Shown one piece after another: positions 38,052-41,627 of a stretch of DNA of 64,000 bases. The stretch lies in the NCBI GenBank assembly GCA_963692865.2, contig OY843592.1:448001-512000 (forward strand), read 5' to 3'. Below the pieces are notes generated by a model. The model worked only from the letters and a program-made list of their open reading frames with translations. It did no database searches and was not told where the DNA came from. Numbering within the stretch: the stretch's first letter is position 1; the number at the start of each line of letters is the position of its first letter. The translations under genes were made by a program, and so were the position numbers. Source of the stretch: a bacterium. Lineage in GTDB: Bacteria; UBA8248.

Positions 38052-38444
38052 TTGCCGTTTTACCGAATATCCGAGATGGAAACGAAGCACATCGACATGG
38101 GCAAGGCGCAGACACAGAGCGTCGCCGGGGAACTCATGAAGGCGGGGATGATCACCTACCCCGCAGACGGCGGCCCGCCGCCGCACTATCACCCCAACGA
38201 GGAGCAGTTCCTTCTGGTGATGGAGGGAAAGGCGAACGTGATTCTGGGCGATGAGACCCGCGTCGTCGGCCCCGGCGACCTGGTGCACATCCGCCGCAAC
38301 GAGCGCCACGGCCTCCGCATCACCGAGGGACCTTTCGCCTTTTTCACCGTAAAAAGCCCCGCCGGCGACGGCGATCTGTATCAGGACTACAACAAGGCCG
38401 AAGACGCCGACGAGGCGCGGGAGAAACTGGAATCCACATTATAG
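38052..38444 (+). CDS. Cupin domain protein, copy 1
   Basis: PHYHPNEEQ...RHG; TTG start with AAGGAG RBS. Confidence 0.88.
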   Translation: MPFYRISEMETKHIDMGKAQTQSVAGELMKAGMITYPADGGPPPHYHPNEEQFLLVMEGKANVILGDETRVVGPGDLVHIRRNERHGLRITEGPFAFFTVKSPAGDGDLYQDYNKAEDADEAREKLESTL

Positions 38445-38473: not shown

Positions 38474-38860
38474 ATGCCGTTTTACAGAATGGAAGACCTC
38501 CCCCAGGGCTCCTCGAAAGTAGGCCCCGCCGTGAGCCACGCGACGGCGGGCGAACTGATGAAGGTGGGCTGGGTGATTTATCCCCAGGGAGACGGACCGC
38601 CGCCGCACTTTCATCCCAACGAGGAGCAGTACATCCTGATGCTCGAAGGGAAGATGAACATGATCTGTGGCGAGGAGGTGCGCGAGATCGGCCCCGGCGA
38701 GCTGGTGCACATCCCGAGAAACACGCGCCACGGCATCCACATTACAGAAGGCCCCGCGAAGTTCTTCGCCGTCAAGAGCCCGGCGGGCGACGGCACGCTG
38801 GATCAGGACTACAACAAGGCGGCAGATGCGGACGAGGTGACCGAGCGACTCAAGAACTAG
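38474..38860 (+). CDS. Cupin domain protein, copy 2 (paralog)
   Basis: PHFHPNEEQ...RHG; colinear with copy 1. Confidence 0.88.
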   Translation: MPFYRMEDLPQGSSKVGPAVSHATAGELMKVGWVIYPQGDGPPPHFHPNEEQYILMLEGKMNMICGEEVREIGPGELVHIPRNTRHGIHITEGPAKFFAVKSPAGDGTLDQDYNKAADADEVTERLKN

Positions 38861-38971: not shown

Positions 38972-39503
38972 CATTCCCCCCTTGAGGGGGTTGAAAAAGT
39001 CCGATGCGGCGCAATCCCCCTCCCCGTCCTGCGCAGCCTGCCGCTCCGCCTCACCCTGAGAAGCGGCCCCCTCGACTTCGCTCGGGGCAAGCTCCGCTGT
39101 CCCCCCATCTTCCTCACCCCGAGTAGCCGCCGAAGGCGGCGTATCGAAGGGCGAATTTCGCGCCCGCCAGCGAGATGCCCTCCCATCCTTCGATACGGCG
39201 CATACGCGCCTACTCAGGATGAGGGTTCGGGGCGCTGGGATGAGGGCGTCAAGCGTTCTGCGAAGCCCGATACCGCGCGGTGGGTCAATCCCGACGGCGA
39301 CCCCTGCACATCCCCATCGAATGGCGACCGTAGGGGCGGACCTGCGTGTCCGCCCTGTTTTACCGTTGCGTTGTCGTTACGAGATGGATACCCGAAGGCG
39401 GGCGGACACGCAGGTCCGCCCCTACGGGAAACATTCCTTTGGAGAGACCGCAACGCCCGTCATTCCGGCGAAAGCCGGAATCCATTTGTTTTGCCTTTGT
39501 TTT
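38972..39503. repeat. Mosaic of several palindromic repeat families, including a GTAG-type REP doublet at 39329-39426
   Basis: CGTAGGGGCGGACCTGCGTGTCCGCCC...GGGCGGACACGCAGGTCCGCCCCTACG plus the other recurring modules. Confidence 0.8.
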
Positions 39504-40031
39504 TTATTGCTGCGCCTGGGCGTCCTGCATCCGTTTCTTCCTGAACTGCACGGCCTGGATGACGTCCTGCCAGACGAGACGCCCCAGAGGCCCCGAACTG
39601 TAGAGCGATATGTTCACCTTGCCGTCCGGTGAAAGCAGAAAGTTGGTGGCGTGGAGGAAGGGCCTCGGTTTCTCGCCCGCCTCGGGTGAGTAGAAAGCGC
39701 CCGTCGCCTCCGAGATGCGAGCGGGGTCCAGGCTGTGTCCAACCGGAAAATTCACCTTGCCGGCTTCGATGGATTGCAACGCTTCCTCTTCGGGGTCGGT
39801 GGACGCCGCCACCACCTTGATGCCCTCTGCTTCCAGTCTTTCTCCCGCCCGGGAGAATCCCGCCATCTGGGCGAGTCAGTAGGGTCACCAATGGCTGCGG
39901 TAGAAGAGGACGACGCCCCACGAACCCAGCAAGTCATTGGGCAAAGAGATTTTTCCGCCGCCCACCTTGGGAATCTCGAGACTCGGGAAATCATCCCCGG
40001 TGTCCAGGAAGAACCGGTTCACTTTCGGCAT
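39504..40031 (-). CDS. Peroxiredoxin-like (AhpC/TSA, thioredoxin fold) selenoprotein with UxxU motif, 175 aa
   Basis: ATG 40031, MPKVNRFFLDTGDDFPSL...VVLFYRSHW-TGA-P-Y-TGA-LAQMAGF, in frame with the 39504..39866 ORF; TGAs at 39887-39885 and 39878-39876; hairpins follow. Confidence 0.85.
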
Positions 40032-40135
40032 GATGGACTCCACTTTGTCGTGATGATGAATGCGGCTGTTTCATGTGCCTGGGATGTTACCTCTCCTGAA
40101 AGACCATGAAAACCGGCCCGCCGGACTCGCGCGCG

Positions 40136-40174
40136 AAAAAACACCCCCTCGAAGCCGAAACCCGAGGGGGTGTC
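40136..40174 (-). terminator. Intrinsic terminator after the UxxC gene
   Basis: Minus strand ACACCCCCTCG...CGAGGGGGTGT-TTTTT. Confidence 0.75.
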
Positions 40175-40187
40175 CAAAAGACGCGCG

Positions 40188-40688
40188 CTAGTTCTGGGAA
40201 GCCATCATCTTCTTCTGGAACTGAACCAGACCCACCACGTCCTGCCACACGAGGCGGCCGATGGGGCCGGTGCTGTAGACGGCAACGGCCACCGTTCCAT
40301 CGGGCTTCAGGACGTAGCCCGTGCTGTGGATGATCTGGCGTTTTTCCTCATAGAAACAACCCGTGAGCTCGGAAATATGCTTGTTGTCCAGGCCATAGCC
40401 CACGGGGAAGTTGATCCCGCATTCCTCAATCGTTCCCTTCGCGTTCTCCTCCGTGTCCACGGAGGCTGCAACAACCCTGACGCCTTCTTCCTTGAGCTTC
40501 GCCGCCCTGTCGAAGGCCGTAAGCTGCTGCTTGCAGTACGGTCACCAGTGTCCGCGGTAGAGCAGAACCACCCCCCAATCGCCCGCAAGGTCGCCGGGCA
40601 GGGAGATTTTTCCTCCCCCCACCTGGTCCACCTCGAGGCTCGGGAAGGGGTCGCCCGAGTCGATCATCTTGTCCGTCATTCGTGGCAT
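40188..40688 (-). CDS. Peroxiredoxin-like (AhpC/TSA) selenoprotein with UxxC motif, 166 aa
   Basis: ATG 40688 with CAGGAGG RBS; ...VVLLYRGHW-TGA(40544-40542)-PYCKQQL... joins two ORF-track fragments in frame. Confidence 0.88.
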
Positions 40689-40846
40689 CAATGCGCCCTC
40701 CTGAAAATGAATGAAGTGAAAAAGCCTGAGACTCCAAGTTCTGAAACGCGACCATTTATACTCCTCAGGCGGAGACATTTCAAACCGAAGCGGGCCTCTC
40801 CCGAAACGTCGCGGCGATGAAGCACGCGTTTTTCACCCCGGCGGTC

Positions 40847-40875
40847 TTGACACCGCGATGGCCCCTTTTTAGCAT
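40847..40875 (+). promoter_or_regulatory. sigma70 promoter
   Basis: TTGACA-17-TAGCAT upstream of the 40922 ORF. Confidence 0.6.
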
Positions 40876-40921
40876 AGGCCCACTTTTTCAAAAGGCTCTC
40901 GATGAGCACAGGAGACCCTCA

Positions 40922-41264: not shown

Positions 41265-41627
41265 ATGCGCGCCCAAAAATACAGTTGGGACGAAATGCCC
41301 GAGGAGGTCTTGAACGATACCTTATCGCGAAAGATGGTGGTGGGCGAAAAAGAGATGCTTTGCTGGCTCCAGCTCAAACCCGGGTGCGTGGTGCCCCTGC
41401 ACAGCCACGAGCACGAGCAGATCTCCCACGTCATCAAGGGAAGACTTCGGTTCTTCATTGACGATGAAACCGTGGAAATCGGGCCGGGTGAAACGCTCCT
41501 CATCCCACCACACGTCCCCCACTCCGTGGAAGTCGTGGGCGATGAGACGGCGATAGACTACGACATCTTCAGCCCCATCCGCGAAGACTGGGTCGACGGG
41601 ACCGATGATTACCTGAGAGACGAATAA
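41265..41627 (+). CDS. Cupin domain protein
   Basis: PLHSHEHEQ, PHVPH, DIFSPIREDW. Confidence 0.9.
   Translation: MRAQKYSWDEMPEEVLNDTLSRKMVVGEKEMLCWLQLKPGCVVPLHSHEHEQISHVIKGRLRFFIDDETVEIGPGETLLIPPHVPHSVEVVGDETAIDYDIFSPIREDWVDGTDDYLRDE

Follow-up and report, generated by a model that had tools for sequence, protein, structure and literature searches.

Selenoproteins in which selenocysteine (Sec, U) occupies both positions of a CxxC-type redox box are rare, but such UxxU proteins are known. The eukaryotic selenoprotein SelL carries a UxxU box with a diselenide (Shchedrina et al. 2007, as cited in PMC4989117). Lokiarchaeota encode a UxxU protein, PrxL.1, beside the one-Sec PrxL.2, and SelL is, according to their description, the sole further diselenide case (PMC4989117). 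UxxU reads were found in 'Prx-like 2' (Prx, peroxiredoxin), a mostly UxxC family of the Global Ocean Sampling data (PMC2398784), and both UxxC and UxxU are tabulated for the 'Prx-like thiol:disulfide oxidoreductase' of Pfam family PF00578 (PMC9312934, PMC13188914), to which a 2026 review assigns '1~2' Sec. For UXXU hydrogenases, one selenocysteine insertion sequence (SECIS) was proposed to serve both codons (PMC13582414). Here, we analyze a bacterial gene with TGA codons at both positions of such a box (gene A) and its tandem UxxC paralog (gene B) in a 64,000-nucleotide (nt) stretch of DNA, hereafter the window (positions 448,001 to 512,000 of contig OY843592.1, GenBank assembly GCA_963692865.2). 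A first-pass annotation of this locus had called the UxxU motif rare but known, in agreement with the family tables cited above.

Gene A is a genuine, mis-annotated bacterial gene that encodes a peroxiredoxin-fold redox protein. We consider it very probable that this protein is a cytoplasmic thiol/selenol oxidoreductase in which both UGA codons (UGA1 and UGA2) are read as Sec via SelB, tRNA-Sec and downstream hairpins, and which operates by diselenide chemistry. This reading is based on how the gene is built and conserved, on the Sec machinery of the genome, on the constraint on the RNA and on the fold. To our knowledge, SelL of eukaryotes is the only natural case in which a diselenide redox centre has been demonstrated biochemically.

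Two in-frame TGA codons at the redox box

Before its TAA stop, the minus-strand frame of gene A contains two stop codons only, both TGA, at codons 49 and 52 (Table 1). Translation and alignment to the CxxC box of ResA bore out the first-pass annotation in that the two TGAs stand at both CxxC positions (FYRSHW-U-P-Y-U-LAQ) and that the frame is otherwise intact for 175 amino acids. The two codons are 9 nt apart and each is followed by a C, which after UGA2 is always part of a CUC or CUG leucine codon. There is no Cys outside the box. The N-terminus (MPKVNRFFLDTGDDFP) is without a hydrophobic segment and the protein is therefore taken as cytoplasmic. A Shine-Dalgarno-like GGAG precedes the upstream ATG, which argues for initiation 5' of the TGAs rather than at Met56. 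The plus-strand reading of the same interval gave no sensible protein.

Gene B lies ~160 nt upstream of gene A on the same strand. As had been claimed, the two genes are colinear (57% identity), with TGA at codon 49 in both and TGC at codon 52 of gene B. An AGGAGG stands 5' of the gene B ATG, and the product matches Pfam AhpC-TSA at 3e-19, plus Redoxin. Gene A itself matches PF00578 (AhpC-TSA) over residues 12-139 at 68.8 bits (cut-off 26, E 5.5e-19), and Redoxin too. Three features of the PF00578 Prx-like UxxC/UxxU family are present, i.e., the domain, UGA at the CxxC columns and a genome with selA, selB, selC and selD.

The expectation that standard annotation would break up such a gene also held. 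In a collection of 5.8 billion sequences, the public proteins nearest to gene A are C-terminal pieces of 119-122 amino acids that cover 64-69% of the query; full-length matches start only at ~55% identity, and those named by their source are called peroxiredoxin or redoxin. Gene A is a concrete annotation failure, represented in public protein sets by a C-terminal fragment only and falling short of the NCBIfam cut-offs.

Recurrence and purifying selection in relatives

We searched 41 genomes, own included, at the protein level with read-through of TGA. All 22 remaining members of the genus yielded the tandem A/B pair; in G015 only the B type was seen. Among the 20 intact A-type genes, eight have TGA..TGA at the box (own genome, G001, G007, G009, G010, G014, G019, G022) and 12 have TGA..TGC, including the closest relatives G003 and G005. 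Codon 49 is TGA in all 20 congeneric orthologs and all 20 paralogs, and the box of gene B is UPYC (TGA..TGC) in 20 of 20 congeneric genomes. Two further orthologs are damaged: in G008, residues 95-136 are deleted in frame, and in G017, from a 79%-complete assembly, a frameshift that could be an assembly error follows about residue 117.

A wider survey with one genome per prokaryotic species, in which 80 of 534 relatives were kept, returned 56 CxxC, 18 UxxC, six UxxU and no CxxU boxes, with TGA at codon 49 in 24 of the 80. Four of the six UxxU loci are congeneric genomes already counted above; the other two, L074 (78% identity) and L075 (70%), each have an adjoining UPYC paralog. The first-pass annotation had asked whether relatives carry TGA/TGA, TGA/TGC or CxxC at these columns, and the whole series, including TGA/TGC(T), was found. 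A metagenome scan with a degenerate 18-nt H-W-U-P-[YF]-U pattern gave at least 119 matches; among the 80 loci examined, one was a family member (contig L228) and 79 were chance matches, such that the scan is no measure of gene abundance. L228 brings the distinct orthologs with TGA/TGA at the same two codons to eleven (eight congeneric, L074, L075, L228), a recurrence that excludes a chance TGA pair. The relatives are labelled uncultured Nitrospinota or Nitrospinaceae, and most public runs in which parts of the locus recur carry the label of sponge metagenomes, at small shares.

This recurrence also bears on whether the second TGA could be a sequencing or assembly error of TGC, an idea for which the TGC at codon 52 of the closest relatives G003 and G005 might speak. 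The same TGA stands in 10 other independent assemblies, and contigs of two public runs that carry nearly the whole locus cover the gene A box and show, among the differences listed, none at either TGA, including 39876-39878. The chance of such an error is negligible, and the concern about miscalled TGC raised with the original annotation is thereby laid to rest.

Substitution patterns were used to judge whether the frame is maintained on both sides of the box. The ratio of nonsynonymous to synonymous substitution rates (dN/dS) is 0.05-0.27 before codon 49, 0.01-0.12 after codon 52 (pairs of UxxU genes, dS 0.62-1.26) and 0.04-0.17 over the whole of gene A, and 20 of 20 compared orthologs are full length (172-177 amino acids); the downstream decay that would mark a pseudogene was looked for and is absent. 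Both halves of gene A are protein-coding in one frame. The view that UGA2 is a true stop, with gene A a decaying or split pseudogene or its real product a C-terminal fragment from Met56, could appeal to the 119-122 amino acid pieces in public protein collections and to the damaged orthologs of G008 and G017. Yet those two orthologs are UPYC, not UPYU, both halves of gene A are colinear with full-length CxxC homologs, the Shine-Dalgarno motif stands at the upstream ATG, and a Met56 fragment would have lost the redox box along with strands one to three of the predicted fold. Because purifying selection acts on both sides of the TGAs, we exclude a pseudogene and a Met56-start product for practical purposes and regard a true stop at UGA2 as highly improbable.

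The history of the second Sec was followed on a tree of 24 A-type genes, rooted with six B-type genes and calculated without the box columns. UxxU occurs on every deep A branch (L075, L074, L228, G019, G009, G007/G001, G010). Six changes between UxxU and UxxC are needed on this tree, three of which are forced by well-supported branches alone; an earlier tree of 20 A-type genes needed four. The simplest history is a tandem duplication of a UxxC gene, an early gain of the second Sec in A, and repeated Sec/Cys exchange thereafter, with the directions of individual changes ambiguous. Such exchange is easy because it takes a single A<->C step, and it would be viable in either direction because the candidate SECIS stands in both forms.

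Selenocysteine machinery and the reading of UGA

The source assembly (4.15 Mb, 8 contigs) is 97.4% complete with a contamination estimate of 6.69%. It encodes adjacent selA and selB homologs (505 and 392 bits) and a selD homolog (335 bits; C1:65915-66877, minus strand) that contains one in-frame TGA and is probably a selenoprotein SelD itself. A tRNA-Sec with UCA anticodon and G73 was found by ARAGORN and the Rfam model RF01852 in two identical copies (C1:1207500-1207596 and C4:29715-29811). Identical copies on different contigs, together with the contamination estimate, suggest redundancy or duplication of a segment in the assembly more than two separate loci. The Sec machinery on which the first-pass annotation had made its case depend is thus complete, with selA, selB, selD and tRNA-Sec(UCA) all in the genome. 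ARAGORN also reported two oddly long tRNAs, a tRNA-Arg(tcg) of 84 nt (C1:2288934-2289017) and a tRNA-Gly(ccc) of 87 nt (C1:3462744-3462830).

TGA is not reassigned genome-wide, because it ends 2081 of the 3920 open frames of at least 300 codons, which makes it the commonest ordinary stop of this genome, and three of the eight Pfam-supported genes near the locus. A more local deviation, in which UGA2 or both UGAs are wholly or partly read as Cys or another residue by a tRNA-ReC (selC*) or by near-cognate read-through, would yield a selenenylsulfide, UxxC-like enzyme. Several observations fit it. Both UGAs are followed by C, and UGA followed by C is a weak termination context. Codon 52 encodes Cys in 13 of the 24 A-type genes, which evidently tolerate it. 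In genomes with UXXU hydrogenases, tRNA-ReC-like genes are commoner, and one or both of the UGAs in question may be Cys there (PMC13582414). In the genome of gene A, however, ARAGORN finds one kind of tRNA-Sec (G73, UCA) and one ordinary tRNA-Cys of 75 nt, and neither ARAGORN nor RF01852 at E<=1 detected a tRNA-ReC in this 97.4%-complete assembly. All but the two tRNA-Sec copies among the 21 RF01852 matches score below the gathering threshold, and the remaining 19 are 17 ordinary tRNAs, one 3' end of a transfer-messenger RNA and one weak match in a coding region; a missed tRNA gene is possible but unlikely at this completeness. Moreover, TGA is kept at codon 52 across dS>1 with a viable TGC one step away, which argues that TGA encodes something that Cys does not supply. 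We consider Cys decoding quite improbable and Sec at both codons the favoured reading.

Closely spaced UGA pairs are not unique to the gene A locus, since the genome holds a second conserved UxxU gene outside the window (C1:249195-249791, plus strand). It encodes an AhpD-like/CMD protein with the box U78-Y-G-U81-AMNH (U78-Y-G-U81-x3-H), and matches TIGR01926 at 89.4 bits (cut-off 81.8). Of 19 congeneric genomes searched, the own one among them, 15 retain both TGAs; C-x-x-U is the box of the paralogs of this gene and of its relatives at class level. In the table of a 2026 review, AhpD-like families appear with CxxU and one Sec only. The gene may therefore be an uncatalogued UxxU variant, and the supplementary selenoprotein lists of BSepDB and of the reviews may contain either it or gene A.

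Conserved hairpins downstream of the UGA pair

Directly 3' of UGA2, the RNA can form two adjacent hairpins, H1 and H2 (Table 1). The loop of H1 starts 15 nt after UGA1; for the start of the H2 loop the distances are 34 nt from UGA1 and 25 nt from UGA2. When 23 A-type sequences (17 distinct) are aligned, standard pairs occupy 96.8% of the pair cells of H1 and H2 combined, versus 49-76% when the pairing partners are slid. Both sides have changed in three of the six pairs of H1, in which 93.1% of the cells pair, and all seven stem pairs of H2 are invariant with G at the first two loop positions. None of 500 shuffles reached the observed covariation score, a control that does not correct for relatedness. 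H2 of L228 carries one C>U change that retains a U.G pair. Synonymous variation is also reduced here: third codon positions vary at 133 of 166 codons across the 20 congeneric genes, but at only one of eight in windows starting at codons 55-57 over H1 and H2, the lowest value in gene A. A hairpin at the place of H1 is found in distant UxxC homologs as well. From sequence and folding, H2 is the candidate SECIS and could serve both UGAs, with H1 possibly helping at UGA1.

Fold, family and proposed catalysis

The AlphaFold2 model of the gene A protein, built from a 39-sequence alignment, has a mean pLDDT (predicted local distance difference test) of 93.6 and a pTM (predicted template modelling score) of 0.90. 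Its best Foldseek matches in the Protein Data Bank are peroxiredoxins (3hjp Bcp4, 5ovq AhpC2, 6q5v, 7kuu and others; TM, i.e., template modelling, scores 0.72-0.79, 17-23% identity). Residues invariant in the family include R45, C/U49, C/U52, Q55, S77, F95-P96, G150 and R151. In HMMER alignments to solved chains, U49 corresponds to the first Cys of the ResA CxxC and to the Thr of the peroxiredoxin TxxC, U52 to the second Cys of ResA and to the peroxidatic Cys of peroxiredoxins, and R151 to the Arg of the GR pair of Prx chains, which we take to be the peroxiredoxin catalytic Arg.

Three named relatives of this fold were considered and rejected. A TlpA/ResA-type extracytoplasmic oxidoreductase is ruled out by the score against the ResA model (22.5 bits, cut-off 170) and the missing N-terminal hydrophobic segment, and identity with PrxU (NF040737) by 18.4 bits against a cut-off of 270 and a motif that is UxxU, not TxxU. 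Typical peroxiredoxins (Prx1/AhpC, Prx6, BCP/PrxQ; PxxxTxxC) do not fit, as Sec49 stands at the Thr and Arg45 at the Pro position and the equivalog models stay far below cut-off (best Prx model 30.9 bits versus 211). Gene A also lies outside the SelL-related NCBIfam family, because it reaches only 26.6 bits against NF040769 (cut-off 120), over residues 33-105 only.

The catalytic scheme is inferred, from Sec insertion at each of the two codons to the diselenide, the sequence of steps and the reductant. UGA1 and UGA2 would be read as Sec by the SelB/tRNA-Sec system of the genome, directed by the downstream hairpins with H2 as the main candidate for both codons and H1 as a possible aid at UGA1. 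Sec49 would be the attacking nucleophile, as in thioredoxins, since all selenoprotein forms of the family have Sec at 49, and none has it at 52 only. Sec52 would then resolve the intermediate to form an intramolecular diselenide, putatively of low redox potential as the first-pass annotation had proposed, which a thiol reductase system may re-reduce; candidate substrates are peroxide or a protein or low-molecular-weight disulfide. Gene A itself would have arisen by tandem duplication of a UxxC gene.

The positions of U52 at the peroxidatic Cys and of R151 at the GR-pair Arg, fold matches that are all peroxiredoxins, and the TxxU-type Sec peroxiredoxins of a published review table would also suit a peroxiredoxin-type peroxidase with the roles reversed, in which Sec52 attacks the peroxide and Sec49 resolves. 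The distribution of boxes among the 80 relatives (18 UxxC, six UxxU, none CxxU) speaks against this order: Sec always appears first at site 49, which marks it as the selected high-reactivity site. Furthermore, the protein lacks the Thr of the peroxiredoxin triad, Pro is not conserved at its place in PxxxTxxC, and the Prx equivalog models remain far below their cut-offs. We judge reversed roles to be a serious but less likely alternative, and retain Sec49 as the probable nucleophile.

Weighing the reading

A number of points weigh against the proposed diselenide selenoprotein. Translation and selenium incorporation of gene A are predictions from sequence. RNA-library contigs over gene A, from two metatranscriptome runs, amount to a conserved piece of ~35 nt with loose ends on both sides; these runs otherwise cover only paralog B of relatives, where contigs span the TGA, and a lack of cover does not imply a silent gene. 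The source sample may be among the two DNA runs in which the TGAs were confirmed. For the protein, every NCBIfam model stays below its cut-off. The 13 A-type genes with Cys at codon 52 indicate that Cys is acceptable there and the second Sec not essential. H2 is equally invariant in orthologs with Cys at codon 52, and it is not specific to UGA2, because it is identical in UxxU and UxxC orthologs; in the 23-sequence alignment it is without covariation, its support there being invariance only. Bacterial SECIS elements are spaced 16-37 nt from their UGA, which places H2, at 34 nt from UGA1, near the upper end. An Rfam scan of positions 39300-40900 at E<=10 returned no SECIS-type or otherwise credible match, only weak microRNA and small-RNA noise far below gathering scores.

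Beyond the reading given above, it is tempting to propose, tentatively and at somewhat less than an even chance, that gene A is a dedicated diselenide paralog born from the tandem UxxC duplication, with Sec at both the nucleophile and the peroxidatic position, one invariant SECIS that decodes both UGAs, a lineage competent for tandem UGAs as the AhpD-like gene indicates, and at least three exchanges of the second Sec with Cys among closely related species. If true, an uncultured, selenoprotein-rich symbiont lineage would harbour a naturally occurring set of near-isogenic enzymes, some with a diselenide and some with a selenenylsulfide.

Surroundings of the locus

Between the two paralogs, directly 3' of the gene B stop, lies a terminator-like hairpin with a U-run (-40.4 kcal/mol, z = -7.07; none of 200 shuffles folds as well), and because of it gene A probably has its own transcript, separate from that of gene B. 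A simple scan for promoters and terminators was uninformative on gene A and did not pick up the hairpin 3' of B.

Table 1. Positions in the window of gene A, its RNA and codon features, and neighbouring features.
Feature	Position	Strand	Remarks
Gene A, Prx-like selenoprotein coding sequence, 175 codons	40031..39504	-	ATG 40031..40029, TAA 39506..39504
UGA1, codon 49, first redox-box position	39887..39885	-	
UGA2, codon 52, second redox-box position	39878..39876	-	
Shine-Dalgarno-like GGAG, 6 nt 5' of gene A ATG	40038..40041	-	read directly
H1 (CUCGCC-CAGAU-GGCGGG), directly 3' of UGA2	39875..39859	-	fold and alifold
H2 (UUCUCCC-GGGC-GGGAGAA), candidate SECIS	39857..39840	-	fold and alifold; one nt after H1
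Gene B, tandem paralog, 166 codons, U49-P-Y-C52	40688..40188	-	TGA at 40544..40542
Terminator-like hairpin and U-run between B and A	40139..40175	-	direct fold; directly 3' of B stop
Small cupin-domain gene flanking the pair	38052-38444	+	
Small cupin-domain gene flanking the pair	38474-38860	+	
Small cupin-domain gene flanking the pair	41265-41627	+	

Right 3' of the gene A stop, positions 39452-39505 form a hairpin (ATTCCGGC-GAAA-GCCGGAAT) that is very high-copy in the public runs compared with the locus, with a summed contig depth of ~338,000 and 113,000 versus ~34 and 30 in the flanks and many different loose ends; it is probably a dispersed REP-like (repetitive extragenic palindromic) repeat. 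The ~640-nt gene-free stretch downstream of gene A also holds a 37-nt inverted repeat (39319-39355 / 39400-39436; 89% complementary, arms 44 nt apart). A second inverted repeat of 20 nt lies at 39131-39150 / 39187-39206.

Besides the three cupin-domain genes on either side of the selenoprotein pair, the neighbourhood comprises creatininase, alpha/beta-hydrolase and cyclase genes at a greater distance upstream, and two SPFH/Band-7 genes downstream. These neighbours have no evident functional link to the redox genes. A 'URPC' motif ~1.8 kb away in two relatives, with a counterpart in the window, is antisense to the Pfam-supported cyclase gene and was rejected as a probable antisense-frame artefact.

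Comparison with known selenoproteins

UXXU Group 4 [NiFeSe] hydrogenases resemble gene A in having UGAs two codons apart and a SECIS-like hairpin common to their one-Sec relatives (PMC13582414). They differ in that Sec serves as a metal ligand in an unrelated protein and in that tRNA-ReC is frequent in their genomes (PMC13582414), whereas none was found in the genome of gene A. SelL shares with it a Prx-like thioredoxin fold, a UxxU box encoded by UGAs two codons apart, one SECIS for both (a candidate in gene A) and the proposal of a diselenide, but is eukaryotic with the SECIS in the 3'-untranslated region. In Lokiarchaeota, PrxL.1 likewise has both redox-box Cys replaced by Sec, a one-Sec paralog and no Cys outside the box, as in gene A (PMC4989117); it is archaeal, its archaeal/eukaryote-like SECIS is placed elsewhere, and the likeness is by published description only.

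Closer to home, 'Prx-like 2' is a Prx-like family in which UxxC predominates and UxxU variants of bacterial type occur; it is described as having only weak similarity to pfam04592 and no homologs in sequenced genomes (PMC2398784), whereas gene A is a clear member of PF00578 with many genomic homologs. The tabulated 'Prx-like thiol:disulfide oxidoreductase' agrees best in kind, i.e., PF00578, Sec in a CxxC-type box, UxxC and UxxU forms, many Cys homologs and a function assigned by inference, a match made by description only. In contrast to the tabulated family, UxxU marks one of two tandem paralogs in the gene A lineage and alternates with UxxC among close species. The paralog-specific UxxU, the repeated Cys exchange among close species and the two-hairpin arrangement do not appear in the text and tables of the compared literature, the supplements of which may hold them, and no bacterial UxxU protein is described there as characterised.

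Gene A is a compact, well-conserved bacterial UxxU case with close natural controls, namely the tandem UxxC paralog and orthologs 91-94% identical with Cys at the second site. Since these controls exist, the potential and kinetics of a diselenide versus a selenenylsulfide, as well as the decoding, are directly testable. The locus likewise poses a decoding problem, i.e., how a SECIS and SelB in bacteria can serve a pair of UGAs spaced by nine nucleotides. The lineage is sponge-associated and labelled Nitrospinota; a related genome, whose name matches that of L074, is listed under the GTDB phylum UBA8248 among the ten bacteria richest in selenoprotein genes (54) in a 2026 database paper. The UxxU Prx-like kind is therefore already known and the lineage known to be selenoprotein-rich, and the gene A locus is a new, well-supported example of it.

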